A stretch of DNA of 64,000 nucleotides from Chiloscyllium plagiosum. Taxonomy: Eukaryota. Positions 791 to 45,823 of this stretch are shown here, piece after piece (positions within the stretch are counted from its first letter, which is position 1; every line of letters starts with the position of its first letter). The notes under the pieces were generated by a model. The model searched no databases and was not told the DNA's origin. It saw only the letters and a list, made by a program, of their open reading frames with translations. The translations under genes were made by a program, and so were the position numbers. The stretch lies in NCBI RefSeq assembly GCF_004010195.1, contig NC_057718.1, positions 58,247,704-58,311,703 of the forward strand, given 5' to 3'.

Positions 791-795
791 GCAAC

Positions 796-1559: not shown

Positions 1560-2589
1560 ACTATAGTGATGAGATTCTGGATATGTCATGATATTAGAGC
1601 TGACAGGTTTCAGACTTGTTTTAGTAAGAATATTCAAACTGCCTAATTAAGGATTCATACATCAACTTTACAGAAATATAATTTTAAAGCATGGAATTTC
1701 TGAGAATGTCATTCTGAATGTGGGTCCTTGGGAATTATGGAGAAAAAATATATAATCCCATTTTTCATTAAATTGAGTTTCACTACTGGAAGATTTTAAA
1801 GCCTGTTGCGTAGAGGATGTGCTTTTTGATTACTTTATGTTTTTTGCTCTGCTTGGGAATTGGGAGATTTGGAGAATGGACAGGGAGGTAGAGTCAAGGC
1901 CAAGGATCAGCTCTGATCATTTTGAATGGCAGCTGTATGATCTATTTCTACTCCTAATGTTGTGAGGTGACAAACAGTAGATATATCACCATGGTGTGCA
2001 CTGCAAAAGAACATCTCTACAGGATAATGATAATGCATTTGTGAATGTTCAGGTTCTCATTATTGTTTACATGCATTTTATACATGTGTGTTTAATCATT
2101 TTTTTACTGATCTTCCCTCTTGGTGACCCTTCAAGTACTTGCTGAGCTTCTGCTTATTTCTTTAGACTTCTTGTGCCCAGTAAAAGATCACCTTTTTAAC
2201 AGAATCTATAGTACCATTACGACCCTGTTCAGAATGATGATGAAAATGTATTTAGCAGAAATTTTTTTTAAGGCATATAGGGAGGATTTGTTTGTGAAGT
2301 GGAGCAAATTTAGGTACCTGATTAATCCTAAAAGTAACCTAAAGTGGATTTTCTGAAATCATGCTGCCTGCTATTTCCCTTTTGCAGGTATAGTTTGGAG
2401 ATGTGGGTGAATCTCCCATGCTACTGATGGGCAACTAATTGAAACATTCAAATTGATCATTAGGTACCGTTTTCACCATGCATTCTTACTTTACCAGTGA
2501 ACTGACCTATTTCCCAAGCTGCCAGCTATTCACCAGGGTCACCGAGATGTCTGCATAAAGAGGATTGCACCTTCAGAGAAACTGACATG

Positions 2590-2800
2590 CTGGGAGAGCT
2601 TTAATCAGGTTTGGAATGACATCACTGTTCCTTTGCTATGGCTGGGTCAAAGTTCAGGAAATCCCTTTCCATCAATATCATGGGTCTATCTACACCACAT
2701 GCAGAGCAAGTCAAGAGGCGAGTCCACCGCCACTTTCTCCAGGGCCATGAGGAATGGGAAATAAATGGTGGCCGAGCCAATGCTGTTCACATCCCATAGC
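2590..2800 (+). mobile_element. 3' end of a LINE, probably the family at 23390-24945
   Basis: gctgggtcaaag...ccactttctccagggccatgaggaatgggaaataaat resembles the tail gggcaattagggatgggcaa of the SINE at 39565. Confidence 0.5.
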
Positions 2801-3059
2801 AGTCACGTCACCTGTCTTTACCTTCACGGAGTGGCAGTGGCACTTCCTTGCTGCCAGGCTTGCCAATAATATGGGAGTAGTTTGTGCAGCTCAACCTTGG
2901 GCTTCTGAAGAGGAGCAAGAGGAGTATCAGCACCAGAAGCACCAGCATTAGCAGAAGTATGAACCTCAGTTGCCTCAGATGCTCAGGTTTATATATTAAG
3001 TTGTTGTGGTCATTCGCAGTCCCAGGGAACACTGGGCTCGAAGACCTTACATTTCCTGT

Positions 3060-3134
3060 ATCGCTGCTTTTATGACCTCTCTGAAAGGAAAGCCAAGGAC
3101 AGCATAACCTTGTTAAATGAGCAGCTTCATCACA
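3060..3134 (-). repeat. Truncated 3' LTR of the gypsy element
   Basis: Matches about 8667-8738; starts with TG on the minus strand right after the G-rich PPT. Confidence 0.85.
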
Positions 3135-3150
3135 CCTCCCCCCCCCTAAA
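3135..3150 (-). promoter_or_regulatory. Polypurine tract of the gypsy element
   Basis: Minus strand reads a G-run ending in GAGG immediately before the LTR TG. Confidence 0.8.
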
Positions 3151-3312
3151 AAAAGATGAACTATCAATATCCAAAGACTGCTTCATGTTAAAAGCCCTTA
3201 ATCTTAATTGTTAATACTCTATAATATGCACATATGTTACATTGACTATAAACATGCACTACTACATTCCGTTTCAGTCTGTTTTACTCCTGCTACTGAA
3301 TGCCTATGTTTT

Positions 3313-3735
3313 TCATTCGAGTCTTAACAATATGTCAGTAATCACATTTTCTCGTCCTGTCACGTGCACAATTTTCACATTGAATGGCTGTAACAACAAG
3401 CTCCATCTAAACAGTCTGGCATTTTTGTCCTGAAGTTTCTCCACAAGCGTCAATGGGTTATGATCAGCGTACATGATTGTCTCAGATATGTTACTCATAA
3501 CAGAAACATTGCAATGTTGTAACGGCAACACCAAGCTCAAAGTCTCCTCCTCAACTATTGAATATTTCTGCTGATGAATGTTCAATTTCCTGGAGAAATA
3601 CCCGAAAGGTCTTTCTACCATTTTGTCGTCTTCCTGCAAGAGTACAGCACCGACATCCACGCCACTTGCATCAACAGCCACCTTGAATAGCTTTGCATAA
3701 TCAGGTGTGGCTAATATTGGGGCAGTGGTTAACAC
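3313..3735 (-). pseudogene. Gypsy pol RNase H domain
   Basis: LFKVAVDASGVDVGAVLLQ...YFSRKLN..QQKYS..EEETL...ADHNPL...RLFRWSLLLQPFNVKIVHVTGRENV. Confidence 0.92.
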
Positions 3736-4620
3736 AGCTTTCAGACTGTCAAATGCCTTCTGACAGTCCTCTGTCTACTGAAACTTCTTGCCTTTCTTTA
3801 ACAATTCAATGAGTGGAGTAGCCATACTGCTAAAATTTGGCATGCATTTTTGATAAAATTCACTCAATTCTGGGAACCGTAGTACTGCTCTTATTGTTGA
3901 TGGTATGGGTAACTCCCCAATTAACTTTGTTCTTGCATCCTATGGGGCCATTTATCCATATCCAATAACACGGTCCAGGAAGGTGACTTCGGCTTTGGCA
4001 AATTCACTTTTAGCCAGGTTTATCACCAAGCCGACCTCCTGAAGTCGAATGAGCAAGTCTGATAAATGTTGCATATGTTCCTCCCATGTGTGACTCAAAA
4101 ATCACCAGGTCATCTATATAGAGACACAATTGGATAATTGAACAGTGACCTGACTGGTTAATCTCTGAAATGTGATTGGCGCATTTTTCATACCAAATGG
4201 CATGACTTTAAACTGATCCAGTACATTCGGTGTTACGAAAGCTGAAATTGCCTTCACTGTTTCTGACAAAGGTACCTTCTGGTATCCTCCAACTTAGAAA
4301 TATATGTTGCTTGTCCCACCCTCTCAACACAATCTTCCAAACACAGAATCGGATATACATCAGACTTTGTAACTACATTGATTTTGCGATTAGTCCACAC
4401 ATAACCGTTGGATACCATCTGGTTTTGGCATTATTATTGTGGGTGAGCTCCAGTCACTATAACTCATTTTGATTATATCATCTTGGAGGATACATTCAAT
4501 CTTCTTTGGAATCTGTGCCAACTTTAGAAAGTTATGCCAATAAAGATGTTGCATAATCGGAACAGCATCTTCTATATCTACATCATGCATAATTAGGTTA
4601 GTACTTCCCAGTTTATTTCC
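3736..4620 (-). pseudogene. Gypsy pol reverse transcriptase domain (disrupted)
   Basis: Minus-strand SDWSSP...KPDG..RLCVD (4390-4450), MPFGMKNAPITFQR (about 4161-4203), CLYIDDLVIF (about 4098-4127). Confidence 0.92.
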
Positions 4621-4784
4621 ACATATTTCCCCATGTGATAGTAATAACTCTTTCGGGTCATTTCAATTTTCCTCTGGAAGTTACCTCAACTATTTATCCC
4701 AATTTTTGACAAGTTCCTCATTCTTCAATTTAATTTGACGGCAGTTGATTTCAGAATCTTCTGAACTTGGTTCTTCATTTTGTG

Positions 4785-6110
4785 TCATAACCAATAACAC
4801 ATTCTCCTTTGTCCTTCCTTCCCTGTCAAATACCATTTGAGCATATTCGCATGACACACTCTGTGAGATTTCTTTCTGTCTGGAGTCCCTATCAAATAGT
4901 TCACTTCACTCAATTTCCTTTCCACTTGATTAGGTCCACTAAAACTTGCTTTTAAAAGATCACCTATCACTGGAAGTAACACTAACACCTTATCTACGAT
5001 AGCAAAATTGCAAATTTTTGATTGTTTGTCTGTTTCCTGTTTCATTGTATTCTGTAATACTTTTAAATGCTGTCTAGCCAATTCTCCCCATTCAATTTAC
5101 TCATTCCCATAAATTTGACACATAGTCCAAATATGTGGTCTCTAAATTCTGACTTACCGAGTTCTCCTTAATCAATTTTAGTGGTCCTCTCACATCATGC
5201 CCAAAAACTAATTCCAATGGACTGAATTTGGTCGATTCAGTTGGTGCATCTCTGATTGTAAAAAGCACAAATGGAATTCCCTTACCCCATTCATCTGGAT
5301 AGCCTTTACTATGAGCTCTCAACATGGTCTTTAATATCTGATGCCACCTTTCTAGTGCTCCTCTGGATGGTACACAGTAGATTTGACTTGTTTATTCCTA
5401 AACTGTCCATAACTTCCTTGAATAATTTTGATGTGAAGTTAACCCTTGATTTATCGGTAGTCTGATTCTAGTGAAAACTTTGAGTAATTCCTTGACCATC
5501 CTTTCAGCTGTGATATTGTGTAATGGACTGGCTTCTGAAAATTTAGTCGATACTTACATTATTGTTAACAAATACTGATTCCTAACAAATACTGATTCCT
5601 ACTGTTTTTTAAGGTAGGGGTCCTACTCAATCAATTAAGACCTTTGTAAAAGGTTCCTCAAATGCAGGAATGGATATTGTACAGTCTAGTGCAGCTTACT
5701 GGCCTCCACTGTGCTTTTTGTTACCACTCCAACAAAATTCAATGGTTTATCCTGTTTTCCTACATCTGGCTTTCCAGTGCTTCTCCGAACCCATCAACAC
5801 TGATTTCATGTGGCTGGTTTTATTACTGCCCGTGGTTTTCCAATTACATGACAAGTATGACAAGTCTGGCAAAAGTCAACTACATCCTTGTGTAGTCCAG
5901 GCCAGTAAAAATATTTTTATATTTTAGCTTGCGTTTTTCTCACTCCTAAATGACTCCCTAGTGGTAGCTTGTGCACTACTCGCAACATCTCCTTTCTATA
6001 ACCCACTGGCAATATGACTTAATGAACTTCTGCCCATTTCTCATCTGCCTAAATACGTGATGGTCTCCATTTCCTCATTAAGGCATTATTTTTAAGATAA
6101 TAACATTCAG
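4785..6110 (-). pseudogene. Gypsy integrase (disrupted), located upstream of RT
   Basis: FCQTCHTCHVIGKP zinc-finger half (about 5830-5875); ESTKFSPLELVFGHDVRGPL; C-terminal GPY/F-like FSGPNQV...LSEVNYLI...VCHANMLK. Confidence 0.88.
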
Positions 6111-6455
6111 GGTTACATTCGGATTATTTTCTGTGTATGCCTTTTGATACAATTGGTTTAAATTTTCATCTTACTGCTGTAACTCAGTTAATTTATCGGA
6201 GCTAAAGAGGTCTGCTTTGTCATCTATCTGCTCCTGGTTTGTGTCAACCATCTGATCAAACAAGGTCTCTGCTAATTCCACTTCAACTTTCTTATCTGTA
6301 TTCTTTGATCACTCCTGTTTCAACTGGTGACTTTGTGATCTTGTTATCACACAGTCCAGAAAGATTTCCAGGATGTGTGTCCTGCAATAGTTCAGTTACC
6401 TGAAGTTCCACTGGCTTTTCAACCACAATAGGCAGCACTCCTATCTGTGTACCAG

Positions 6456-6776
6456 CTAATGTGTATCATTAGCAAGGACAAGTTGTATTCCTGGAGCTGA
6501 GAGTTTGTTCAGTACTCCTACCATGACTTCTCCGCTCTTCACTGGACACTCTAACCTCACTTTACATAATTGAGTGCTTTTTGTCTCACTGTGAATTCCT
6601 GTTACGAACACTTTTTCTAACAATAGTCCTTCAGAGGTACATACCTCCTCATCTTTCAACATCACAGATTGACAGGATCCTGTAATTCTTAATATTGTGA
6701 TCTGTTTACCTGCTGCTCCTGGCCTATGTGAGTTAACTTTACCTTCACATGTATATGGTTTAAGAAGATCTGACAC
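6456..6776 (-). pseudogene. Gypsy aspartic protease remnant
   Basis: ITILRITGSCQS is a mutated ILRDTG active site; the C-terminal LVLAND matches the ILGND motif. Confidence 0.75.
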
Positions 6777-6786
6777 TTCTTTCTTA

Positions 6787-7185
6787 GAGTCATAGAGTCA
6801 TAAAGATATACTGCACAGAAGCACACCCTTCTGTCCAAAACATCCATGCTGACCAGATATCCCAACCCAATCTGGTCCCACTTGCCAGCACCCGGCCCAT
6901 ATCCCTCCAAGACCTTCCCATTCATATACCCATCCAGATGCCTTTTAAATATTGCAATTGTACTAACTCCACCAGTTCCCCATGCAGCCCAATCCACACA
7001 TGCACCACCCTCTGCATGAAAAAGTTGCCCATTAGGTCTCTTTTTTATATTTCCCCTCTCACCCTAAACCTATGCTGTCTCATTCAGGACTCCCCCACCC
7101 AGGGAAAAGACCTTGGCTATTTATCCTATCCATGCTCCTCGTGATTTTATAAACCTCTGTAAGGTCACCTCTCAACCTCCGATGC
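6787..7185 (-). mobile_element. CR1/HER1-like LINE 3' fragment nested in the gypsy element, TSD TTCTTA
   Basis: RRLRGDLTEVYKI CR1 ORF2 C-terminus, tail repeat, ttctta at 6781-6786 and 7186-7191. Confidence 0.9.
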
Positions 7186-7199
7186 TTCTTAACCAGCCT

Positions 7200-7990
7200 C
7201 TGACCAGCTTGTACATTCTGGTGCAGCTTTCTAACCTCCACTGTGCTTTTTGTTACCACTCCAACAAAATTCACTGGCTTATCCTGTTTTCCTACATCTG
7301 GCTTCCCAGTGCTTTTCCCAACCCATCAACACTGTGATTTCATGTGGTCTACTTTATTGATGTTAAACACAAAAACCTTTTTACTTCTCTTTCCCCTTCA
7401 AGGGTTTCCTTTTTATCCAGTGATGTAATCCTTATGACCGTCACCAAGATCTACCTTTCCACGTGAGGATTTCTCTTTTCCCTAGTTTCAATCCCTCACG
7501 GATTGAAATTGATTTTGGAAGCCACACTTTCCTAATGGACCAACTCATAAACATCAGCCATTTCAGCTGCTAACCCCTGCTATTTTAAATCTCAGCACTT
7601 CCACATGAGTTTTGCACAACTTCAGGAAGTGAATTTTTGAACTCCTGTCTAAGTGCCAATTTCTGAAGTTCAACCTCCCCCCTTTCTCCTTTTTTCTCTC
7701 TTCTCCTTTTAATCGTAATTCAAACTGATTCATTTCTCTTGCCCTCTCCTTATCTTTTGCCTCTAACTGAAGCTGCTTCATTTTCTATTGAATTTTAGTC
7801 ATCTCTAAACATTCAGATGGGCACTTCCAGCAAATTTAAATGCTGAACTATTGCTGTAATTATCTCTCCTTTCCTCATGGGAGGAGGCAGCTCCAACTCC
7901 AGCTTGACTGCTAATTCCAGAAACTTGGCCTTAATGACCTTTTGGAATGTCACTTCTAACCACCTGCAGAAAACTCTTGATTACCAAAAG
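7200..7990 (-). pseudogene. Gypsy gag remnant (coiled-coil region and decayed CCHC knuckle)
   Basis: MKQLQLEAKDKERAREMNQFELRLKGEE; NKVDHMKSQC knuckle remnant at about 7330-7360; lies between the PBS and the protease. Confidence 0.7.
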
Positions 7991-8111
7991 AGCAATCCCA
8001 AGAACTGTTTAAACCAACCAAAATCAACACCCGGAACAAAAGACACTAACACCTACCACTCGCTGCCTTTGAGGGCAGCAACCCTGATCTCAAATTGGAA
8101 CGATAGAACAA

Positions 8112-8131
8112 ATCCTGCAAAGAGCCCTCAA
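8112..8131 (-). promoter_or_regulatory. Degenerate primer-binding site, tRNA-Pro-like
   Basis: Minus strand ttgagggctctttgcaggat just after the LTR end resembles TGGGGGCTCGTCCGGGAT. Confidence 0.55.
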
Positions 8132-8133
8132 TC

Positions 8134-8738
8134 TGTTGTGGACCAGACTATTGTTGTAAGCATGTGTAACACGGATATTTTGGGATGGATGGAGCTGGTC
8201 AAACCATTTAGTTTTAAACAAAACAGAGTTTACTTACAAGATTACCAATTGAAACACAAAAGAGAACAGAATACAGAATAACTTTACCTATCCGAAAACC
8301 CAACTGATTATCCAAACTTAACGCTGCTATTCCCAATTCTTGCAACGATCCCCATAAATACCCTTTGGCACAAAAGGTAAAGTCAAACATAGGGTCTTAC
8401 AGGAGAGAGAGAGACGTGGCAGCATGGAACACCCTCTTCCATGAAACTGTTCCTTAGACTGGCAGCCTCAAACTGCCTGACTGCTTTCAGTGAATAGCCA
8501 GACTGCTGAAGACCAAATTAAACCAGAGACAAGCTGAGCTGAGAGAACTGGCCTCTTTCATTGTATAAGTGTTTTCTTTAAAACTTAAAAGCCTTTTTTC
8601 TGAGGCAGTATCTGTTAGCTATAATCAAATTGGCCCCAAAACCCATTCAAACCAGAGTTTTCAGAATCACTGCTTTTATGTTTCTCTGAAAAAAAGCCAA
8701 GGACAGCATAACCTTGTTAAATGAGCAGCATCTTCACA
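8134..8738 (-). repeat. 5' LTR of the gypsy element (about 605 bp)
   Basis: Bounded by TG...CA, adjacent to the PBS; the terminal ~70 bp are repeated at 3060-3134. Confidence 0.85.
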
Positions 8739-9659
8739 ATATATTGTGTGATAAATAAGACATTTTTATGCAGAACATCTGAATTCTGTGGAGACAACAA
8801 TACTCTTGCATGCTATGTGTATGGTTCCATTTTATGATTCTTGTCAGTGGGTTTTAAGGCAGGGTTTTGTATAATACAATGCCTGGCCTGCCTACTTGGA
8901 GCTTACCCATGAACTCTAATCCTTCTCTCATTTTATGGAGGCAGTGGCGACATCAGCTGGCCCAGCTACCCTCAGGTTTTCTGAGATCCTTAAGTAATCA
9001 ATGAGTGGCCACTTAAATGCCCTTCCTAACTCTGTCACAATTATTACCCACAGCGGGGAGGCTCCACACTAAGCAGGTAGCCGACAGCTTTTATTGGTGA
9101 GCTGGTGTCTGAAAAGGGGAGATTTCCTTTGGAGCTCCCCATAACATTATTACTCATTTTAACTGCAAACCCCCAGCCTCTCCTCGAACAGATATCCCAG
9201 CCAGGCTCTGCTGCTATTCCAGATTTACAGTCAATCCAGCTTCCATTAGTTCCTCTTCTTTAGGGATGTCTTGCTAGAATGGCCACTGTTTGAACATGAC
9301 GCAGCCAGGACTAAGAGCTGACTACTTTTTAAGGCCAATTTTCTTAGCACCTCACTAAACAATAAATGACTGTTGGACAGCCTGTGTTGGAGTTCCCTGT
9401 TGACTCTTCAACTGACTGATGAGCAGAAGCTCTTCATTTGAAAAGTTCTGTCCAACAATACTGTGGAACTAATTTGCACTTACTCGACTTTGAAATAACA
9501 CTTATGAAATATAACTGGAAACTGGCAGAAGTGGGAGTTAGCATCAAATCAGTGAACATACTGCTGGTTTCCACCTCATCAGCATCTTCCCCTACATGCT
9601 CCATAATTGTTTGAGGCACCTTTGATTTGGTCGGAACCTCATGAATGTAACAAAGAATT

Positions 9660-10280
9660 GTACAGAATATAGAACACAATTGAAACATGTAGCACAACTT
9701 GTTAGTGCTGGCATGTGTACATCCATCTGCCTCAGTCTACCAATGTATCTTTCAGTTCTGTTCCTACTTGTGTACTCATCTAATTTTCTTTTTGAAAGCA
9801 TCTAAGCAATTTCCCTCAATCACTTCTTATTAAAGTTGTATGTTCAAACCACCTTATGAATAAATAAATTATATTTTAGTTCCCTTTTGGATTTATTCGT
9901 GACTACCTGCGCTTTTGGGCCATTAGTTTTCGTTTCACCCACAATGGAAACATTTTCTCCACATTTATTCAGTCCAACACATTGATAATTTTCGAGATTT
10001 TTATCAGACCATCAATAATTAGCTCTTTCGATCTTTCTCCAAAGCTGTAATGTGTTGATCCTTGTACAATCCTTGTAAATCTATTTTGCACTTGTTCCAA
10101 TGCTTTTTTGTCTCCATCATATAATGGAGATCCAACTTGTGCACAATACACAATGGATGGTCTGCCCTGGGTCCTGTACAAGTTCAATATCAATTTGTTA
10201 CTTTCAAACTTTATAGCCGTAGAAATAAACCATTGCTTTTTGCCCATTTTAAATTGCTTTGCTGGCCTGCAGTATTGCTC
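9660..10280 (-). mobile_element. Old CR1-like LINE 3' fragment
   Basis: LILNLYRTQGRPSIVYCAQVGSP...ALEQVQNRFTRIV matches the CR1 ORF2 C-terminus. Confidence 0.75.
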
Positions 10281-10771
10281 TTAATTGTTTGTCCTTTTCT
10301 GAAATGTCGGTAATGCACTAATTAATATATATCATCCATGTTAAATATCATTTACCACTTAATTGCCAAGCCTTTGCAGTTTCAGGAGAATCAGGTCTGT
10401 TAAACAGGTCTATGTGGTACCCACACTCCCTTCAACATTCTGTATCATTCATTTTACTTGAAGTTAGTTCAAGTAACCAATATCTTTGTGAATTTGATAA
10501 TTTCCTGCCGAGAAAGTAAAGATGATTTAACCAACCAGCTTCATTTAAGTGCTGCCAGTTAACCTTCCATCCACAATCAGTTTAAGTAGGCAAAAAACAG
10601 GCAGCCAAGAATCATATGCTGAACTGTGGAGAAGATGGGCCTTTTTGGAAGCTCTGCCTAAAGGAAAATGCATGTTGAAGTAGTCTGGGAGATGTGAGGA
10701 CTTTCATAGGATCTGTTCTCTTCCTCCTATAAAGCAAAGCCTCTGACTTACCTGAAGCATCCCTAAGAAAT

Positions 10772-11434
10772 AGAAACATAAACAGAAATTGCTGGAAAAG
10801 CTCAGCAGATCTGGCAGCACCTACAGAAATCAGAGATAACACTTTGGGTCCGGTGACCCTTCCTCAGAACTGATGGTAACTCGGAAAAATTTGTTTTTTC
10901 ATGCAGAAGATAGGGGATAAGAGGGTAACAATAGATGGAAATACAGCTCAAAGAGAGAGAAGGACAGTTGGACAGACAAAGGAGTAGATAACGGTCAGCC
11001 TAGGCAAATGAATAGCTATTAATGGGGGACTATTAGTGACTAACAATGGATTGGCTGTAATAACAAACCATGTGATAGCAAGGCCTGGTGTGTGGACGTT
11101 GGTGTAAGTACATGGGAAAAGATGCCTCAAACCCTAAAATTGTTGAACTCGATATTGAGTCCAGGAGGTGTAGAGTTCACAGGCGGAAAATGAGGTGCTG
11201 TTCTTTCAGCTTGCACTGAGCTTTGCTGGAATACTGCAGCAAGCCTGAGACAGAGATGTTGGCTGAAGAACAAGGCGATGTGTTAAGGTGATAGGACACG
11301 GAAAGCTTAGGGTCTTTTTTGCGGGCAGAATATAAGTGTTGTGTGAAGTGGTCACCCAGCCTATGCTTCATTTCCCCAAAATAGAGGAGACCACATTTTG
11401 AGCAGTGAAGGCAGTAAACTGGATTGAAATACAT
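10772..11434 (-). mobile_element. Penelope-like element 3' end: GIY-YIG endonuclease remnant, UTR and terminal repeat with decayed hammerhead
   Basis: VYCLHCSKCGLLYFGEMKHRLGDHF...KLKEQHLIFRL, then a frameshifted GLNIEFNNFR; minus-strand CTGAGGAagggtcaccggaccc at about 10845-10867. Confidence 0.9.
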
Positions 11435-12529
11435 TATGCTTCATGAACTGATGAGCAAGCTGATCTTATTGGAATAGTGTGTTCCAGCATCAAGTAGAAA
11501 TAAATACAACAACAGAAGTCTGCTCTACAGACTATGCGTAACATACAATATCATCAACAACAACCTGTATTTATGTAAGGCAATGAAAAGCAATAAAACA
11601 TCTCAGGGCATTTCACAGAATTGAATTGTGAAAGAAAATTTGATGCCAAGCCACATAAGTTGTGTTGGGTTTTACAATATAAAATCTGATATCAGCCGTC
11701 CATCAGGTATTCGAGAACACACTCACAGGAGGCAGGAATGAAACATTTCGAGACATTGCAACAGCAATCACATATAGAGAATTGTTGGCAGCCAGAATCT
11801 GGTCTCCTGAACCCTCACCAAACTAGTCAGGATTTTAATTCAGGAAACTGGGCTAAATTTCAACTTGATATCATTAGAAAATATGTTTATTGCTAATGGT
11901 TAGTTTTAACATTTTCATTACCTTACAGGAAGATTTCTTTCCCTTTTATTTAATGAATGCTTCACTTTTTGTGAGATTCAACTGTTGTCTTTTTGATAAA
12001 TTTTTGACTGGAGTCTTTGGTATTACTCAAAGAACAGAGAGCTGTTCTAATATCATCTCTTATTAACTGTTAAGTGAGGCCATTAGGACTCTGGAACAGC
12101 ACAGCAATGGTACCATAGAGTCACACATCACAAGGTATAATTAGCACAGTGTGGGCAAGTTTAGAGTACTCTCTGGAAGAAGCTTGCAACACTCTAAAAT
12201 GAGAACGAGTCGTGGCAGTGTGTAAAGATAGATTATTCCTTACTCTAAGTCAGAGCCTGGTATACTTATTATTTATCAAGTACAGTAGTATTTATTATTA
12301 AAGTATAATAAGTAACATTATTTTGAAGCATAAAGATAGTCTTGACTTTGCCTTCTCTACTGCTAGTCTGTGTCAAACACAAACTCATATTTTGGCATCA
12401 CACCACATGGTAGAAGATCTAACACACAAAAGGAGCTGTCTGTCATATTTATTAATTTGTATGGAAACATGAAAGCTGATGTAAAAAATTACATCCAGTC
12501 CTCTCCAAAACAAACTGAAACTCGCAGAA

Positions 12530-12792
12530 GCATGACAGTGTGAGCAGATGCTAATCGACCTTTTGGGTCTGCACCAACTCTGAGGACCAACTGACCCAGC
12601 CACAGACCCTACACTATCCCCATAACCCTGTATTTACAATGACTAACCCACTTAGCCTGTACATCCCTGGACATTACAGGGCAATTTAGTATGACCAATC
12701 CGATTAATCTGCACATCTTTGGACTGTAGGAAGAAACTGGAGCATCCAGTGGAAACACATGCAGACATGGGGAGGATGTAGTCCACACAGTA
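12530..12792 (-). mobile_element. HE1-like V-SINE, diverged and headless
   Basis: gcacatctttggactgtaggaagaaactggagcatcc is the reverse complement of the central domain seen at 61806. Confidence 0.8.
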
Positions 12793-13089
12793 ATGGAGGC
12801 CACAACAGCAAATCCAGGTCATACCAGTCTAGCCTAGGTTGAACATAATAATCATGGACTTAGATCTACTTAGTTACTCTTGAACTGAACTCTCTTTCAT
12901 CTTAGAAGTAATAGACAGTTCACAAGTTTTTGCAATCTGACACTTACAACACCTTTTTAAACACTTTTGGGAGACCCAGAATTTACCCATGATGAACTCA
13001 GAGACTGCTATCATTTTTTCCAACCATGAACACCTTACACCATCACCCCAGTTTAGGGCCCCTCTTTAAATCTTTAATCACTGCACTTT

Positions 13090-14560
13090 TTCATTAGGCA
13101 GATCTTTGAAAAACGCAATAAGAAAACCAGAGTGAGCACCTGGCAGATTTGATTTGCTGCTTGTTCTGTACCATCTCCACATTGGGAACCGGGCACCAAC
13201 ATCTCAGGGCATGGTCTGTGGGCACAAGGTGCGCACACATCCCACATCCATGGATATTGGCTTCTGACATATGCCAGACTCCAAGAGCCCTTATGGCACA
13301 TTTCCAATCCACTTACAGGATGTTTCTGTAACTTCAGTACTGCAACTTGAACTGACCTAGCAACTCCCATTAGGATCCAGTTAACGTGCTCAGGGACACA
13401 CACCCAGCTCATTGACTGAACCAGGCTACATCTCCAAGTTTTTCATTCACTGTCAAAGCTCTCACTCACTTTGACCCTACTTCAATGTTCGTTTGCTATT
13501 TTGTGCCTTTCCCCCTTAGTCAGAGATACCAGGCTCATATTACTGCTGTTTTCCCATGGTCTTTGACACAGACACAAAGGCAGGAAGCCTGTCATAGTTC
13601 TCAGTCGGCCTCAAGTCAAGTTAAGGGGGACAGCCTTTGGTTTCCTGCATACAAGGGCAAAGGCATCATCTGATACTGGTTCAGGTCCTGCTTGGGTGGT
13701 CATCCATAAGGGTGAGGAGCCAAATGACAGGAGCACACCACCAGTTTGATTCTTGATGCTCCATTGTGGGCTGTTTTCCTCATGGACTCTGAGAGAGGCC
13801 AGCTGAAAGAGAGGAATCATGGGAGTTGAAAGTTGGTGGCGCAGCTTTTACTGTTGGTACAGGTAGGGGAGTGTCCAGCATGGGCAGGTAGGCACTACAG
13901 AGAGTGTTTAGATTTATTGCTATTGGGGGTTATGGTGGGTGAGAGTATATGCAGAAGAGATTTTGAAGGCAATAGTGACAGTGATAGAATCTTGTTGGGA
14001 GATGATTACATTAGTAGAGCTAGAGTGAGTGTGAGGTATCAGAAGGAAGATGGTGGAACTTACATTGGCAGAGTTGAGAACAGAAGTGACTCCTTCCTAC
14101 CTTGCTGAGCATCCCTCCAGATGGCTAAGACTGCTTTAACCCAGGTGGCAAACGTGGTCCAATGGAGATCTGGTGTTGTGGCCTCCACTGCTGGTCCTTA
14201 GGATGGTGGAAGTTTGCACCATATCATCCAGGAGGACCCAGGACACTGACAATAAAGCAGGGTGTCAACTTGATCATCACCATGCAGGGAAACTCTGGAC
14301 TGATGGTATATGTATAGTGCACAAAAGGCTTTTAAATATGTGTAGAGGCAAAGGAAGCTGGTGAATTCTGGGATATCCACTTCGTGGTGAGTTGTTCCAA
14401 GAAGTGGTAAGATGGGGCACAAACCAGGCGTCGCAGACACCATGGGGCAGGGTACGTAATTAACGAGGCAAATTTGGTAAAATAAGGAGATAAAACTCAC
14501 TGGCTTCATGGCAACAACCCGTCTAAATACTCAACACAACCTTGAACTTAGTCAAGATAT
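13090..14560 (-). mobile_element. PIF/Harbinger-type relic with a degenerate Myb/SANT-like coding segment
   Basis: Inverted homologue of 24975-26410; the minus strand at about 14060-14265 resembles a SANT domain and ends at a GTAAGT donor. Confidence 0.55.
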
Positions 14561-16272
14561 CCTAAGGTTCAGCCAAATGATATAAGTGGTCAGTGCCTCA
14601 CGTGATAGTGGCTATCACAGCAGTTAAGAAAACACAGAACATAACTGAAGGCTTCCTGAATGGCTGACCGCTCTTCCAAGAAAGTAGTAAAATTCTCACC
14701 TCGAAGCAATGAATACTGGTCCCAGCATTATATTTCTCTGGGGCAGCAGTCAGCACTGTGGCTGGCTTCGTCCTCAGATTTTTACCCGGGAGGCCAGGGA
14801 TGATGGCATCCCAAAAACATCCAACCCCAAATATGCAACATCTGAACTTATATTATCAAAGCAAAATATGTGGCAAATAAGTGGTTCTTTATAAAAAGCC
14901 ATATTAACAATGATGAATGCTGTAGGTGCGTATCCAGGCTTTTGTCTCTTTAATTAACAAAGACGCTTTAGTTTGCAATCAGTGTTTACCTTGTCAGTTC
15001 ACAGATACATTTTAAATTTGACATTATTTATCTGTTCATCTGTTTTATTTATGTTATTTCCTTACATTTCTGTGCAGCATTTTTGTCTCTTTGAGATTCC
15101 AAGCTCTTTATTTCTGTGATCATAAAATGTTTCAACGGACTCCTGTATTTGATGTCTTGTATGTATAAAAGCAACAAAAGCAGAGACTTGTCCTTTTTTG
15201 GTTCTCTGCCAATATCTTTTTGATGCTGATCATGTGAATTATATTGTCGAATTGTTCTCTATTTTCTTTTGTGGAATTTATTTTGCTGAATAAGTTATCT
15301 GAAATACTTGGACCAAGGATAATACCAAACGTGTACTGAAAATCACACCAAATGTATCAGCATTTTTTAAAGTAATGTACAATAAATGTCATTAAAACCA
15401 GATAATTGATGGGCACACTAATGGCCCTTAAACTAGTGCACATTAATACACACCAGCTATTTGGTACCAAATCACTTACAAAGTGCGTCACCTGTTGCAG
15501 AAAGAAAAAGGCCACAGAATGTTGGTTTGCCTAAATAAAACCTCAGCGTTATTTTATATGTGTCTTGGGTGGATGTTAATTAAACAGTGTCGTTCCCCTT
15601 TTATCATGTTTAAGACATACAGAAGAGTTGCTGTTATCCAACAAGCATTGGATAGGGTGGTGCCTGTAAATAAAAATAAAATGCCAGCTATCAGGGATTT
15701 ACTACAAAAGTAAGAGGTTAAAAAGAAAACTCTATTGACTCATGTAGTATTGCTTTTGAGCATCTCAGAAAATAAAAGCTGATAGTTGGAGACAATAAAG
15801 ACACCATTTATAAAGCTTACTGGAGAAAGCAATAATTAAGACACTATTAATAGCAAGGAAAGCGATGGATGATGTGAAAACAAATCCTTCTCTGTGCTTG
15901 TCACACTGTGTTCTCCTATGCAGCACTTCCTGGCTGGTTACAAAGATGCATTTTTGCAAACAGCTCAGCCACCTACCCTGTTGGCTCAATAAAGGGAAAG
16001 AAGTAGAAGCCAGAAAAACATAAATAATTTCAAATGAGGAATATCACCTTCAATGAAAAGTCAAATGGTTTAAAGTGTATTTAGTTTGTGGATATCAAAG
16101 GGTGGGAATGATATTAGAGATTCTGACTCATGAAGCATTTTGGTTGCTATGGTGCTAGATAATGTAAATCTTACTCTAGTTGGGCAGGCAGGCATTCCCT
16201 ACATGTCTTCAGGAATGTTGATGGTCTTTTGTTACATTTGCAATCATTGAGGATTGACTTATATATGGAATG

Positions 16273-16493
16273 AGCTGAAAATGTGTTGCTGGATCAGCGC
16301 AGCAGGTCAGGCAGCATCCAGGGAACAGGAGAATCGACTTTTCGGGCATAAGCCCTTCTTCAGGAATCCTGAAGAAGGGCTTATGCCCGAAACGTTGATT
16401 CTCCTGTCACCTGGATGCTGCCTGACCTGCTGCGCTGTTCCAGCAACACATTTTCAGCTCTGATCTCCAGCATCTGCAGACCTCACTTTCTCC
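16273..16493 (+). mobile_element. Palindromic PLE-derived mini-element with paired hammerheads and 14-bp TSD
   Basis: Inverted arms centred at 16366, a ~34-nt tail, and ttatatatggaatg at 16259-16272 and 16494-16507. Confidence 0.92.
16363..16402 (+). ncRNA. Minimal type I hammerhead ribozyme motif
   Basis: ggaatc CTGAAGA a GGGC ttat GCCC GAAA C GTT gattct; helix I ggaauc/gauucu, palindromic ACGU helix III, GUU triplet. Confidence 0.75.
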
Positions 16494-16567
16494 TTATATA
16501 TGGAATGACACAGACTGTGGTATAAAATGTCAATTTTTGCATATAGTAAAAAGGATCATGTCGACCA

Positions 16568-16690
16568 CTGAAGAAGGGTGACTGGAGCCAAAATTTCTCT
16601 CTGCAGGTGCTTTCAGACCTGCTGAGATTTTCCAGCAATTCCTGTTTTTGTTTTTGATTTCCAATATCCGCAGTTCTTTCGGTTTTTTGT
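16568..16690 (+). mobile_element. Degenerate PLE terminal repeat (second subfamily) with tail
   Basis: ctgaagaagggtgactggagccaaaa, then cagacctgctgagattttccagcaattcctg and the tail. Confidence 0.7.
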
Positions 16691-16959
16691 TTGGGAGCAT
16701 GTCAGTGTTGTTGGTAGTGATATTTGAAAGAACCCATGTTGGTTTACATGTGAGAAGACATTTGGTATAAACAAAATGAGATTAGACTTTTTTTTCATGA
16801 GTAGATGCATTGTAGTTGGGAGAGAGAGGAATAAACTGTTTGTATCTTATGATCAACAATGTTTAGAGATGATAGTTCTAATATTCTCCTCTGGTACTGT
16901 TTTCCTCTCCTCAAAACCTGCCATGATCTGACTTACCAGAGAAACACAATGATCCTTCT

Positions 16960-17430
16960 CAGACTTGTATGGCCCAGAAAGGAGGCTATTTGGTCATTGT
17001 GTCGGTGGTGATCAACAAAGATCTGACTGTGCAAATCCTACTTTCCAGCTCTTGGTCCATAACCCTTGATGTTAGAGCACATGAATGTCAAATACTAATC
17101 CAATGTTATGAAAGTTTCTAACTCAACCACTCTTTCAGGCAGTGAGTTCCAAACTCCCACCATACTCTGGTTGAAAATGTCTTCTCTTCAACTCCCCTCT
17201 TAGCTTTAACCCTGACCTTAAAGATTGGTTATTGACCACTGTACTAATGGAGAAAGTGCCTTCCTATCCATTGTATTTATTCCTTTCAAAATCTTATGTA
17301 CCTTGATCAGGTGCTCTTTCAATCTTCTTTGCTCTCAGATAAACAATCACAGCCTATCCAATCTTTCCTTGTAGATCAGACTTTCCAGTTCAGATAGTGC
17401 CCTGGTAATCCCCTCTTCACCCTCTGAAGT
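16960..17430 (-). mobile_element. Old CR1-like LINE 3' fragment
   Basis: caaccactctttcaggcagtgagttccaaactcccaccatactctgg and aacaatcacagcctatccaatc are CR1 3' motifs in reverse. Confidence 0.7.
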
Positions 17431-19911
17431 GTCAATGTTAAACCATGTCTTCCCATTCTTCTTGACCTGGCTTTAGACTTTGACATGTTTGACCAGACCA
17501 TGCTCTTTCAATGCCTTTCCTCTGTTTCTAATTGACTGCCTTTGCTTAACTTGTTCCCACTTTTCCTCTCAAAGCCAGAAAATCATTTGCAACTATTTCC
17601 CTTCCTGTTCCTTTAAGTCATGGAGTATGATAAGGAACTATCTCCTAGCTGTCTTCCAACTTAGCTATGTAGCACCCCTCAACAACTGATCTGTAAATGT
17701 ATAAAGTTCCAAATCCATGCTAATTACCCAGCTTGTTATGTAAAAAAAACCTAAATTCATCTGCTTTCATACCAAAACGTTTCCAGATGTTGGACAATAT
17801 ACCATATTAATAACATTACATTTGACCTTTCATATTATATACTTTTTCTATTTTTTTAAGATTTTATTTTTATCTTTAAAATTACTTTTAATCTAATTAT
17901 TTTTAAGATTTTGGGCATGTGAGCTGCAGCTTTCAATGTCTTCTGAAATCTTTTACATCATTTGTGACATTTCTGTCAAATGAAAGTATAATGATTGCAC
18001 CTTTTTAATGGCTCACATTTACTGAAACTGTATACATAATAGTAACAAGTTCTCAAGCAGAATTAAAGCAAGCTTTTGTGTGTGCATTTAGCATGACCCC
18101 TTTCTTCCAGATTTCATGGGGAGGCATGGGGAAAGATGATTTCAGAGCAGGAAGTGTAAATAGCATGCATAGAAAGTATACTGTACAGAAAACAATATTT
18201 TCTGTATTCTTCCCCGAGCCCCATCTGTTGCCTGAAAACTGATGTGATTTGACTGTGATATATCATCCATATAACAAAACCCTTCTGCAATTTAACTCGT
18301 TATCCTTGTGTAAAATATAGAGCGTTATTCTCATAATTAAGATAAATAAAATTAACCACTAATGCTACATTTTGAAGGATTTTATAAACAATCTGGTTTG
18401 CTATTTCAGGAAAATTGTGACGATTATGCACAAATGTAATTGTGAAACATTTGCTTGCTTATAAAGTTACATACATAATTAAAGATAATTTTCTTTGGAA
18501 TATCATTCAAATTCCCACAGTGGCTGAAGATTCATTTATAATACAAGGCTTTGGGTACATTACATTACTGCTAACCTGCCATCAAATGTCTAGCGTGATA
18601 TTATAATAAATGTTATCCAGTAATGTTCACCTCCCAAACAGCATATTTTACTGAAATTATAAATGACATTATGTGTAAACGGTACACAGAGCACGTCATA
18701 AGCTCAGTGCTTTATTGTACCAGCATTTCATCTGTACCTTTTCAGCACAGAAGAAGCTTCTATGAATCCTAATGAGGTTTCTATCTGTCACTCGAAAGAC
18801 ATCCAAATAAATAATTTCTGTGCTTGTATTTTTCCAGCAATAATTTCAGACTCTTCAATGTGAAAGTTATGGGTTGTAAAATATGTCACTGATTGAAGAA
18901 GCAATATGTCTGTCAGTGCCCAGAGGTTGAGTGTTTAATGTAAGCAGTATTTCACATTCTCCTGGGACGCAAATCAAGATGTCAGAATTGCTGCCTCTTG
19001 CAAGCCCAACATTCTGTATGATCTAAGGAATGTTTAACCTGACTTTCTAGTGATTTGATTGACTATAAGTCACCTCAGATCATCAAGCAAATATTTAAGG
19101 TATGAACAAAGTTTTTAGTTGATTCCAGAGGTTTTATAGGCTGGCAATTAATTCCATTAACTTTCTGGCTACTGTGTCCTATGCTTCTCTACAAATTGTA
19201 AGTGTTTCTATGGCCTAAATTAATTAGAGAGGCAATTGAATAATTTCAGTTATTTACTTGTTTTAATATCTTTTGTTTTTAAATTGGGACTTTAAATTCT
19301 AGATAACTGGCTTATACACTTGCTCTTGTGTTCAGTTAGTTTAAATCGAGGATTGATTAAAAGTACACTCTCAGTAGGCCTGCTGCCTATATTCTAACTT
19401 GCACATGGTTCTGTTTCCCCATCTCTCATCTATGCTAGATCAGTTATCATGCAGGCTTCAAGGGGCAAAGAAGTGGCTTGGGGGCATAGGGAGCATGAAG
19501 GAGACATGGAGCACTGGATAGTGAGTGCATATGGAGACATATCTGCAGGGTTAGGAAGTTTCTCAGTACAAACATCCAGTCTTGACAGGAAAAATCCAGC
19601 TCATTGTATGACGAGTTTGAATCCAGGCTTTAAGGCATATCCCATTACTGCTGCTCCTCTTTTATACATGAGCTGTCTTGTGATCATCCTGAATGAAATT
19701 ACTGTTGTTATGATCATAGAGAAGATAATCAAATTTAAAGTATCTTCTCGTTAGGGACAGTAACTTTTTCTATTTAAAGTTGACCAAATGGGAAATCCCA
19801 AATGCTTACTAAGAGAATAAAGCTGCAACAATCTACAATATGCACACAACTAAGACTCCAATGTTCAGCATTAACATGAGGTAAATATGAGTAAGCAAAT
19901 GTGTGTGGTCA

Positions 19912-20106: not shown

Positions 20107-20829
20107 ACAGTTCCCACAGACTCCATGTTCAGTAGCCAATTTGGTGAAGGTAGATTCCACAAATTTGTCAGCTACCCCTCAGAGATTAATGGCACTAGCG
20201 GACACCAAATCTCATTAAGACTGTGTCTCCTTTGGAAGGAATTCTGATTCTTCACACTTGAAAGTCTAGCTTCAAAGCTTCCTCACACTCTAACTCATCA
20301 CAGTGAATAATCATATCCTGGAAGTTCAAACCTTTGGCATCCTTTGGATTCTCAAGGCTGTGTCCCAGTGTCGACTCACAAAACAAATTCTAGCTCCTTC
20401 ACAAACAACCAGCTTCTCTAAGCTGACACTACTCTGAGGGTTTCTCTGAGCTCCATTATTTCTCAGTGAGAAAATGCTGCATGTGGGTTTCCAGGGACTT
20501 CTCCAGCCCGAGCTATCTAGAGTCTGCTAACATCAGCACTCTCACAATTGCAAAGTCACATGCAGTTTCGTAATCCAACCTTTTTTTAGTGATTAACCTC
20601 TCAAAGCAATGTAACCACAAGCTTCTAAAGGTAGGAGACATTAAGGTGCTTCAGTTGCATTTATTCTACATCTTCAATTAAATTTTAATTCCTAAATAAA
20701 AAAAAGTACTGAACCATGAAGTAAATATTTACAATCTATGACAACAAGCTTTTTCCAAAGACACAATAGCTGGGACCAGTGGAACTTTGACAGTCAGTGG
20801 CTGGTGAGCCCAGATGGGGGGGTAGGCGA

Positions 20830-21440
20830 TGGGGAACTCAGACCAGTTTGGGGGAGAGGGTGCCCTTGTGGGGATGTGGGCCCAGTGTGGGCAAGAGGCT
20901 GTCCTCATGGGGAGTGTGTGCCCAGTTTGGGAGAGAGAGTACCCTAATGGGAGTGGTCTCCCCCAGTGTGGGGGAGCGAGTGCTCTCGTGGGGAATGCGG
21001 GCCCATTGTGGGGGATAGGGTGCCCTAGTGGGGAGTGCGGGCCCATTGTGGGGGAGAGAGTATCCTAGTGGGAGTGTGGGCCCAGTGTGGGGGAGAGAGT
21101 GCCCTAGTGGGGAGTGTGGGGAAGAGAGTGCCCCATGGAGATGTGAGCACAGTGTGGGCAAGAGGCTGTCCATGTGTGGAGTCTGGGCCCAGTATGGAGT
21201 GGGGGGAGTGCCCTCTTGAAGACTGTAGGCCCATTGTGGGCAAGAGGCTGTCTGTCCGTGTGGGGAGTGTCGGCCCAGTGTGTGGGGGGAGGGGGGGGGA
21301 AGGGTGCCCTAGTGGGGAGTGTGGGCCCATTGTGGGGGAGAGGGTGCCCTCGTGGAGATGTGGGCCCAGTGTGGGCAAGAGGCTGTCCTTGTGGGGAGTG
21401 CAGGCCCAGTGTGGAGGAGAGGGTGCCCTCGTGGCGAGAG
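20830..21440. repeat. G-rich minisatellite, unit about 40 bp, about 15 copies
   Basis: gtgggcccagtgtgggggagagggtgccctagtggggagt alternates with the variant gtgggcccagtgtgggcaagaggctgtcct. Confidence 0.92.
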
Positions 21441-39971: not shown

Positions 39972-40185
39972 AGGGGTTGGTTGGCTGAGTTAACTACCCA
40001 TCTGGTTTGCAATGCAGACTGATGCCAACAGCATGGGTTCGGTTCCTGCACTGGCTGAGATTATCATGAGGGCTATCTTTCTCAATCTCTCCACTCACCT
40101 AAGGTTTAGTGACCCTCATGTTAAACCACCATCTAATGAGAGAGCAGACCTATGGTCTGGTAAGTGTATGGTGACTTTCTCTTTG
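39972..40185 (+). mobile_element. SINE-like element with a tRNA-like head
   Basis: ttggctgagtt...aacagcatgggttcggttcc (B-box-like); a related head lies reversed at about 33630-33690. Confidence 0.45.
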
Positions 40186-40204
40186 CCTGTACCATGGATA
40201 ACAT

Positions 40205-40426
40205 AGCTGAAAATGTGTTGCTGGAAAAGCGCAGCAGGTCAGGCAGCATCCAGGGAACAGGAGAATCGACGTTTCGGGCATAAGCCCTTCTTCAGGAATT
40301 CCTGAAGAAGGGCTTATGCCCGAAACGTCGATTCTCCTGTTCCCTGGATGCTGCCTGACCTGCTGCGCTTTTCAGCTACCACATTTTCAGCTCTGATCTC
40401 CAGCATCTGCAGACCTCACTTTCTCC
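40205..40426 (+). mobile_element. Palindromic PLE-derived mini-element with paired hammerheads and 13-bp TSD
   Basis: 94-bp arms (40205-40298 and 40299-40392) with the inner 75 bp perfectly complementary; 34-nt tail at 40393-40426; TSD ccatggataacat / ccatggagaacat. Confidence 0.94.
40295..40334 (+). ncRNA. Minimal hammerhead ribozyme motif (mirror copy on the minus strand at 40263-40302)
   Basis: CTGAAGA (40302-40308) a GGGC ttat GCCC GAAA C GTC gattc; helix I needs a one-base bulge. Confidence 0.75.
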
Positions 40427-41829
40427 CCATGGAGAACATACAAATGGAACTAGCTGCTTCAATTTCAAGCAGTACCCACATATGCTATTTACATTATCTC
40501 TCCTCATTTTAAACAGAGCTCACCCTGATGATTGCTCAAGTGAAGAATGTTCTCATGTCCATGGGGGGTTTGATCAATCCCATCCACAGTTATTCTGTAT
40601 GTCATTCTATCCATTTTTAAACAGGACTTTTTGTGAAATGAAGATCAGATCGAACACATTCATTGTCAGAAATCTGGACTCCTATCATTTGAATCTTACA
40701 TCCTTAACCTTGAGTCAGCTCCAAGTCTTGTGCTTTTGAAGAGCCTTTTAACCAAATTAAAAATATATTGGAGAAATTCTGGGCTTAACAGTGCCATTAT
40801 TGAATAAGTTTTAACTTTTTAAAAAAAAATTGACATTAACATTTCTGAGGACTGTGACAAGTCACCCAGACTTAACAGAACCTCCCAAGAATAATTTTCT
40901 AAGTCCTGTAAACGGCTTGACCATGGGGGTCCAAGGGTTATGAAGTCACTTACACAAGAAACTCAAATTGTTATGTATACTGAGTGCTGCACTATTTCTT
41001 GGTTAACATGTTCATGAAATCAATCTATCATGTCAGTACCTCTATACAAATCATTTCATTCCATTCCACAGCTCATTTAAAAGTTAATTTAAAGATTCAA
41101 AGTCCTGTAAATCTCTGGGTTATGAAATGTGGCCCATTTCTGATATTATCTATTTGCCAGTTGCCTTTTCAATAAAACCATATGACTCTTTAATGTTCGC
41201 CCACTTCCCATTAGATATTTTTTTGCTGAAGACTGACTATCTTAATAACAGGGGCATTTTTTTATCAGACAAGTTTAAAGTAATAAACCACATTTAAGCA
41301 AAGGGAACAAAAGTTACCAGGAATGTAGAAAAGTAAATGTTGTGTCCCTATGGTAATTTATGTTTACATTAATAGTTCTCTATAACAAAGTGTTGTAACT
41401 TATTTAGTGACTTGTGACATTAAGTCCACTCCACATGGCTACAGATAATCTCATGCTGCCTTGCAATTACTTTTCAAATCTGTGCAGAGAGGGATTTTTT
41501 TAAAGTAAAATGAACCTGCTAGGAAGACAATCTTGAAAATATACCATTTCTCAAGGTTACTGATTTATGGTTAACATGAGAAAAGTGAATGATTTACAAA
41601 GTTTTATCATTGGGTTAAAAATCCAGGAATCTGACATAATAAAGGTAGAATTTATCTTATCTAGTTAATAATAATGAATATTAGTAATTTATGAATATAG
41701 AGAATTGTGAAACTAAAGTTCAAAACCCTGTGTAATAAGAACAAAACATACTTGGTCAATGTAAATTATTGTTCTAACTTGTCCTTTGAACCATTTCAAG
41801 GAGACTGAAAATTACATGCGCTACAATGC

Positions 41830-45290: not shown

Positions 45291-45473
45291 AAAGACCAAA
45301 GAGAGAGTAGACTTGTATTATTAAGATTGTGATTTGCACAGTGCAGTTACATTGGAAAATATGTAATGGTTGAAGCAACATGTTAAGACTTATGAAATTG
45401 TGATGCATTCTCATTAAAATGTGAAAATTCAATAATTGACTGTTCTGACGGACAACAATATAAACATATTTCA

Positions 45474-45823
45474 GTTGAAACTTTATTGCTGGAACAGCAC
45501 AGCAGGTCAGGCAGCATCCAGGGAACAGGAGATTCGACGTTTCGGGCACAGGCCCTTCTTCAGGAATGAGCAGAGAGTGTTCAGCAGGAGAAGATAAAAG
45601 GTAGGGAGGAGGGACTTGGAGGAGGGGAGTTGGAAATGTGATAGGTGGAAAGAGGTCAAGGTGAGGGTGATAGGTCGGAGTAGGATGGAGGCGGAGAGGT
45701 CAAGAAGAAGACTGCAGGTCAGGAAGGCGGTGCCGGGCTGGAAGGATCCGGCTGAGACAAGGTGGGGGGAGGGGGGATGAAGAAACTGGTGAAGTCCAAG
45801 TTCATCCCCTGCGGTTGGAGGGT
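45474..45823 (-). mobile_element. Young PLE 3' fragment (GIY-YIG C-terminus, UTR, terminal repeat), TSD CATATTTCA
   Basis: Minus strand translates TLQPQGMNLDFTSF; its terminal ~92 bp closely match the palindrome arms; catatttca at 45465-45473 and 45824-45832. Confidence 0.9.
45532..45567 (-). ncRNA. Minimal hammerhead ribozyme motif in the PLE terminal repeat
   Basis: attc CTGAAGA a GGGC ctgt GCCC GAAA C GTC gaat; intact core, 4-bp helix I, palindromic ACGU. Confidence 0.8.

Follow-up and report, generated by a model that had tools for sequence, protein, structure and literature searches.

A palindromic stub in the genome of Chiloscyllium plagiosum as a probable dead-end insertion product of a Neptune-type Penelope-like element

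Organization of the palindrome and its relatives in the window

The window analysed here is a stretch of 64,000 nucleotides of Chiloscyllium plagiosum (contig NC_057718.1), taken from a host genome of 3.56 Gb. It harbours a palindrome of 222 bases at 40205-40426, in which two mirrored arms of 94 nt each (40205-40298 and 40299-40392), perfectly matched over their inner 75 bp, are followed by an unpaired tail of 34 nt (40393-40426). The unit is flanked by a 13-bp duplication with a single mismatch (40192-40204 versus 40427-40439). Positions within the arm are numbered from +1, the A of ATTC directly before the CUGAAGA box (40298 on the + strand, 40299 on the - strand); in the parent element, this base is the A of an initiator-like TCATTCC. 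The features are as follows.

40192..40204, + strand: left copy of the 13-bp target-site duplication
40205..40299, - strand: short arm, repeat +1 (40299) to +95 (40205)
40264..40299, - strand: mirror minimal hammerhead, from the sequence
40295..40302, no strand: palindrome centre, GGAATTCC
40298..40333, + strand: predicted minimal type-I hammerhead, by eye against PMC4209133
40298..40426, + strand: tail arm, repeat +1 (40298) to +129
40393..40426, + strand: tail of 34 nt, repeat +96 to +129
40427..40439, + strand: right copy of the target-site duplication
16273..16493, + strand: second, independent palindromic stub with its own duplication, centre GAATC
45473..45823, - strand: young sister subfamily, copy truncated at its 5' end; element 3' end (about 260 nt), then one arm to +95

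Upon re-reading of the sequence, the arms, the tail, the duplication and one hammerhead motif per strand were all found as the original prediction had described them. At the centre (40295..40302), the short and tail arms share two bases, AT, an overlap that is expected if two cDNAs ending at +1 anneal. We infer that +95 is the first reverse-transcription start and that the tail is the stretch between two such starts; the tail of PAc, the Poseidon element of Anolis carolinensis studied in vitro, is defined likewise (PMC11167929). The proposal that read-through would yield a long hairpin was borne out by folding: the whole palindrome gave -184.9 kcal/mol (z -23.7), a value equalled by none of 200 shuffles, while a single arm folded no better than its shuffles (z 0.1). 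To the left of the palindrome lies a SINE-like stretch with A- and B-box-like letters (39975-40180, by eye); ARAGORN found no tRNA gene in the 64-kb window, this stretch included. A G-rich minisatellite with a period of about 20 to 40 nt occupies 20810-21437.

The second palindrome, 24 kb away, had been presented as a copy with the same ends and nearly the same centre. Its outer ends are indeed identical to those of the 40205-40426 palindrome, but its centre differs (GAATC as against GAATTC) and it carries another subfamily letter at +73, in both arms. A third arm, absent from the original prediction, lies at 45473-45567 on the - strand and is attached to about 260 nt of retrotransposon body. 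It belongs to a young sister subfamily, the 40 best matches showing 99-100% identity across about 350 nt, and longer relatives of this copy (45473-45823) code for a reverse transcriptase (RT) thumb and a GIY-YIG domain. More diverged relatives of the outer part of the arm occur at 1460-1562, 10774-10827, 16593-16694 and 26432-26483 of the window (families D7, D16 and D18) and are probably older Penelope-like ends.

The arm belongs to a Neptune/Nematis-type Penelope-like element

The coding part of the parent was read from a sister subfamily that is about 90% alike in the arm. One locus (L052) holds an open frame of 324 residues, the stop codon of which lies 158 nt before the hammerhead. The protein (P0001) comprises an RT thumb, a CX4CxxC linker and a GIY-YIG nuclease with a CCHH pattern, with a CxxC between the IIY and YIG motifs. 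Against the Pfam GIY-YIG family it scored 22.4 bits (E 1.5e-4), just under the cut-off of 22.6, and its Atlas matches to RT/GIY-YIG clusters were 0.96-0.97. A DKG motif (KPADKGG) is present in the N-terminal pieces of L032 and L091, both from related subfamilies, and Pfam returned no family for the DKG-bearing N-terminal piece. Within the subfamily of the 40205-40426 palindrome itself, the body is attached in L066, L085 and L090.

A CX2-5CxxC linker between RT and endonuclease is a feature of Neptune and Nematis (PMC8557442). The GIY-YIG domain, the CCHH pattern, the Cys linker and the DKG motif thus identify a Neptune/Nematis-type Penelope-like element by the features given in PMC8557442. Judged from these motifs, the arm is the terminal repeat of an EN+ Penelope-like element, and the linker fits Neptune or Nematis alike; an RT core was readable in none of the loci examined, so the clade rests on motifs. 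The Penelope-like origin proposed originally is therefore upheld by an ORF with GIY-YIG, CCHH and Cys linker that precedes the arm.

Among the loci examined, no copy had the repeat running through +129 into the ORF. L032 shows body, arm and then ORF sequence across an apparent deletion, and two further candidates for a partial tandem had no visible repeat-to-ORF junction. We infer that the arm forms the 5' end of the ORF-bearing RNA. In some family copies, L002 and L070 among them, a frame beginning with the ATG at +51 extends without a stop across the tail (by eye; window 40298-40426), so that the ORF may start with the tail, as it does in other Penelope-like elements. Inverted arms, tail and duplication are likewise seen at L091:2836-3175, in an older subfamily whose core reads CUGAUGA; each arm there includes about 60-80 nt of body.

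The palindromes are genuine insertions with heterogeneous centres

A duplication of at least 8 bp flanked 27 of the 30 palindromes selected by query, with a median of 14, and 7 of the 11 that were unselected, with a median of 13; shifted controls gave 3 of 30 and 0 of 11. Of 28 usable copies sitting in older repeats, 5 had an empty paralogous site among the loci examined, in which the duplicated sequence is present once. Duplications and empty sites together confirm that these are real retrotransposed insertions, as had been proposed.

Close-centred palindromes number at least 8,132 genome-wide (exact pattern, all subfamilies with that core). Among 50 of these that were listed, 34 different centres were counted by eye after merging reverse complements: GAATC in 10 loci, GAATGATTC in 5, GAATTC, the centre type of the 40205-40426 palindrome, in 3 and CCATTC in 2. 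The other 30 are singletons, and many of them repeat short pieces of nearby sequence. About 15 of the 50 listed centres hold short copies of helix II letters, resembling the templated inserts of end joining. The GAATC and GAATTC centres recur with +47C, with +47T and in the sister subfamily. The original prediction took the palindrome itself for the mobile unit and expected a uniform centre genome-wide. The centres proved heterogeneous (34 kinds among the 50 listed), which makes it unlikely that the palindrome moves as such, and the claim is further weakened by identical centres on different subfamily backgrounds and by single and body-attached arms that have the same ends as the palindromes.

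Alignment of 42 palindromes gave a similar result. The +47 variant was present in both arms in all 13 carriers, and single-arm differences common to several copies were mostly CpG changes. The +73 variant was found in both arms of one carrier and in only one arm of two; the latter may reflect two template molecules or point mutation. The shared centre and shared arm asymmetries of a non-autonomous family with a palindromic master were not found among the copies. It is well supported that each palindrome was formed anew from element RNA.

A target motif was considered because CAT preceded the short arm in 28 of the 30 best copies. This was traced to selection, since the query contained those letters, and no CAT motif was seen by eye in unselected copies. 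L003, L006 and the flank of L074 are separate insertions at the same position of one older repeat, differing in centre and in duplication length; L003 and L006 were query-selected with flanking letters. The underlying repeat looks CR1-like.

Arm starts pile up at +1 and often carry an extra G

Exact genome counts fell from 33,157 for +5..+32 to 19,672 for +1..+32 and 10,299 for -3..+32. Retention was thus 59% at +1 and 31% at -3, the latter requiring 7 parental bases ahead of the core, as compared to 92% and 86% expected from mutation at a mismatch rate of 2.1% per base. The first 30 matches represent 28 distinct insertions, two pairs being both arms of one palindrome. Body was carried by 7 of these 28 unselected insertions and the other 21 start between two bases before +1 and +4, 14 with an inverted partner and 7 as single arms. 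For the sister subfamily (11,532 matches, with a pattern that excludes G at one upstream place), the parental upstream letters were kept in 39 and missing in 61 of the 100 matches listed (by eye). The parental TCATTCC at this place fits the initiator consensus YYANWYY.

The base at -1 was scored in the 4,959 matches that have A or C at -2, a requirement by which GG centres and parental copies without mutation drop out. The first 100 had C in 51, G in 36, A in 8 and T in 5. G accounted for 36 of the 49 non-parental bases, as against 0.24 expected from the composition of the loci (p 5e-13); with an expectation of 0.5 the excess still gave p 7e-4, the listed matches coming from the first contigs only and the p-values treating loci as independent. 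About 14 of the 100 have a G readable from the partner arm and two are point mutants of body copies (by eye). Contigs from an independent DNA run also had G or TG at joints to +1/+2, in three listed joints. The sequence upstream of the G is heterogeneous by eye, which ruled out a subfamily with a fixed G at -1. A splice acceptor at +1 was likewise rejected, there being no AG at -2/-1 and no common upstream exon.

In L1 and SVA, an extra G at the 5' joint is attributed to copying of the cap (PMC11702581, PMC3287187). Annealing of two cDNA ends in silico, with or without the cap base, produced GAATTC, GAATC and GAATGATTC, the three commonest centres. This agreement supports a cap and does not prove it, since simple trimming of the ends before joining, with no cap base involved, would account for these centres as well. 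Against a strict start at +1, the parental C outnumbers G at -1 (51 vs 36), and the start may be spread over -1/+1; the 51 include mutated body copies and templated inserts. In RNA from one polyA single-cell run, 2,258 reads matched on both strands and 91% continued into unlike sequence. They showed no start or end peak, polyA single-cell libraries being ill suited for this, and a second RNA run had 0 reads matching the repeat. Such reads are compatible with read-through of embedded copies and speak neither for nor against the start site.

Arm ends and their pairing

In 13 of 14 unselected pairs, one arm ends between +87 and +99 and the other between +124 and +129, the remaining pair being interrupted and unscorable. 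Ends near +95 and near +129 each also occur alone, the former in single-arm and body-attached copies. In 8 of the 14 pairs (L062, L065, L074, L075, L076, L077, L088 and L089), the start of the tail arm lies deeper in the repeat than that of the short arm, and each arm thus has bases missing from the other; L076 and L088 combine a full short arm with an inverted tail-only partner. Such non-nested arms exclude fold-back of one cDNA, unless the palindromes lost their centres later. Loss of this kind can occur once a palindrome has inserted, and it could account for part of the arm asymmetry.

Beyond +129, 62 distinct flanks were compared; T came first in 45, TC in 24 and TCAAAGA in 5. These common letters indicate that the RNA template continued past the copied part.

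In L001-L030, the duplication often overlaps the outer end of the short arm by 1-3 bases (A, AG or AGC), which suggests short primer-template pairing at the +95 start, unlike PAc, the start of which is reported without homology. Mixed insertions, with one arm carrying at least 300 nt of body and a partner starting near +1, were seen at L034 and L047 and suggest two binding sites or two RNAs per event.

The hammerhead motif and its uncut templates

The + strand motif consists of the helix I 5' strand (40298-40301), CUGAAGA (40302-40308), helix II (40310-40321) and GAAA (40322-40325), with the predicted cut after 40329. Core boxes, helix II, a bulged base before helix II, a palindromic helix III remnant and a short helix I, all features of the minimal type-I form, were recognised by eye. 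Helix II folds, and helix I pairs at 3 of 4 positions here and at 4 of 4 in the sister subfamily. The assignment made originally thus agrees by eye with the description in PMC4209133, but no hammerhead model was among the 11 Rfam matches up to E=5. Hairpin-type and microRNA matches in the same search were set aside as chance, as they merely reflect the palindrome hairpin. The label of a double hammerhead holds insofar as each strand has one motif, but any single transcript has only one in the sense orientation. Minimal hammerheads need a same-strand dimer (PMC4209133), which two motifs on opposite strands cannot form.

Junctions at the predicted cut (+33) were estimated at about 150 and those at the control site +37 at about 70, each from 100 listed matches; there were 266 matches at +33, with 42 point mutants among the 100 listed, and 142 at +37, about half of them point mutants (both by eye). 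The twofold excess at +33 is partly explained by five bases there that repeat the G-plus-start sequence. Non-parental joints at +1 exceed 2,000 in the A/C-at--2 set alone (estimate from 100 listed). The ribozyme cut was therefore rejected as the source of arm 5' ends, +33 junctions being rare as compared to those at +1, and it follows that the hammerhead templates were almost all uncut, as for PAc, which uses uncut RNA in vitro (PMC11167929). RNA reads of one polyA single-cell run showed no read-start peak for cleavage at GUC.

Proposed mechanism and alternatives

Arm end positions, the spectrum of centres, the extra G, the duplications and the parentage were read directly from the copies. We propose, with a probability of roughly 0.7, that the palindrome arises as a dead end when a Neptune-type Penelope-like element inserts, being formed anew each time from an RNA with a capped start at +1 by priming from both nicks. 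The element RNA would begin, capped, at the initiator-like A just before the hammerhead (+1), and the element protein would make staggered nicks about 13 bp apart. Reverse transcription would then be primed on both strands at two internal RNA sites, near +95 and near +129. With the bound site at the RNA 5' end, both cDNAs would reach the cap, and stop there, at a length of 95 to 130 bases, the cap itself often being copied into one extra base. Microhomology of 1 to 5 bases would then allow a head-to-head joint between the two ends, together with trimming or short templated inserts. Priming of one strand only would leave a single arm, an RNA continuing upstream would give long arms, and the hammerhead would be carried along uncut. 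The start site with its cap, the priming of both strands and the order of these events are deductions from the junctions.

Alternatively, both strands might be primed as above, but on a short capped transcript of arms already inserted, which would move in trans in the manner of a Pol II SINE; what is mobile would then be the arm, and every cycle would produce the palindrome afresh. Each inserted arm would keep +1 and the downstream promoter elements, and short arms outnumber body-attached ones about 2 to 1; moreover, the Penelope promoter is internal (PMC2377424) and pLTRs are enough for trans mobilisation in a rotifer (PMC3846280). We nevertheless regard this as unlikely, as flanks after +129 often share parental-looking letters, which stubs lack, PAc requires RNA extending 172 nt into the ORF, past its start sites (PMC11167929), the +47 and +90 variants occur in body-attached copies too, and few arm variants are common to several copies. 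On the preferred reading, some two thirds of the products are probably copies of the element's own capped 5' leader; it is similarly doubtful that, beyond this, the palindromes act as divergent promoter pairs and their single-arm transcripts are re-mobilised. If such re-mobilisation took place, a short Pol II element would be re-made into a palindrome every cycle, with the stub start sites pointing outward from the palindrome centre. Fold-back self-priming, in which one cDNA or an antisense template folds and is copied back as the mirror arm, would explain why the arms agree at +47 in 13 of 13 carriers; the GAATC centre can be drawn as a 3-nt loop, and such an origin, with an antisense template, has been published for head-to-head palindromes (PMC3846280). 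The bases unique to each arm in 8 of 14 unselected pairs, two of which have tail-only partners, make it quite improbable, as do the GAATTC centre, which leaves no loop, the use of +95 as an ordinary single-arm end and the extra G on the sense side, which fits a capped sense template.

The model of the original prediction, a fixed palindromic master that is transcribed and retrotransposed whole while its centres diversify by instability, has now become very improbable. It can draw on the constant outer ends, the clean duplications and the few common centres, and loss of the centre is known in long palindromes. Against it stand the occurrence of the same centres with +47C, with +47T and in the sister subfamily, the largely CpG nature of single-arm differences common to copies, the 7 of 21 short insertions that are single arms with the same 5' end, and the non-parental G at -1; a transcript of the whole unit would also be a hairpin of -185 kcal/mol. 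Finally, the pile-up at +1 could mark a reverse-transcriptase stall or an RNA break before the hammerhead fold and not a transcription start. The position coincides with the 5' edge of helix I and a D. virilis intron ends at the same place (PMC4209133). However, a stall would not add a G, there is no AG acceptor at -2/-1 or common upstream exon, and the ribozyme cut site, +33, is not where ends accumulate, so we consider a stall or break hardly credible.

Significance and comparison with known systems

The origin of Penelope inverted repeats and tails has been called undefined (PMC8557442). Here, the junction statistics of tens of thousands of young stubs point to both-nick priming on capped sense RNA, at the two start sites that PAc uses in vitro. 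If this is true, the start site of a Penelope-like element and the priming of its sense strand from both nicks can be read from DNA alone. The model makes exact predictions for the PAc in vitro system (a capped template and the expected centres) and predicts a transcription start. It also offers a possible reason for tandem copies, as nothing but stubs would come from monomeric RNA. In annotation, palindromes of this kind should be listed neither as MITEs or microRNA precursors nor as a mobile family of their own.

An inverted pLTR with tail and duplication is the typical Penelope layout (PMC3846280, PMC8557442, PMC2377424). EN+ Penelope-like insertions show the same head-to-head inverted repeat, one-arm tail and duplication (PMC3846280, PMC8557442), as well as a pLTR with an initiator-like motif and hammerhead, the optional tail there being 30-40 nt. 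What differs here is that most copies are bodiless, that they number thousands and that they end within a few bases of one position. Penelope palindromes have been attributed to self-priming on an antisense template, or their origin was left open (PMC3846280; PMC8557442).

PAc shares with the present copies two internal starts that bound the tail, cutting and extension of both strands and the use of uncut RNA, and it is predicted to be a dimer (PMC11167929). It belongs to the Penelope/Poseidon clade, whereas the parent here has a Neptune/Nematis-type Cys linker, and inverted products and cDNAs ending at the cap are not treated in the main-text sections of PMC11167929 considered here. L1 twin priming is alike in that the opposite nick primes a second synthesis, and the resulting inversion has a clean duplication and is joined by microhomology; an extra G there indicates that the 5' end is complete (PMC11702581, PMC3287187). 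The two pieces of an L1 inversion, in contrast, come from different parts of the RNA, and the position of the second start varies, whereas the present copies have two fixed starts at a distance of 34 nt and overlap each other.

Non-LTR retrozymes are also short, non-coding and derived from PLE terminal repeats with a type-I hammerhead (10.64898/2026.07.22.740005; PMC7229834). They are head-to-tail tandems with two same-strand hammerheads, whereas the stub is head-to-head with one motif per strand. Retrozyme identity was accordingly rejected, as it needs at least two same-strand hammerheads in tandem. In Schistosoma mansoni, dual minimal hammerheads lie on opposite strands 100-700 bp apart; by analogy these pairs are probably the same kind of inverted product, and PMC4209133, in the sections considered here, mentions them in a single sentence without junction analysis. 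The passages of PMC6155905 and PMC5753468 that were consulted hold nothing on palindromes, and our literature search, covering main-text passages, found no description of cap-terminated palindromic stubs or of twin priming in Penelope-like elements. The insertion pattern is one known for Penelope-like elements, here in its shortest and commonest form; the junction statistics of the arm starts, the extra G and the arm-end pairing are what the present analysis adds, and the joints appear to record the RNA start.
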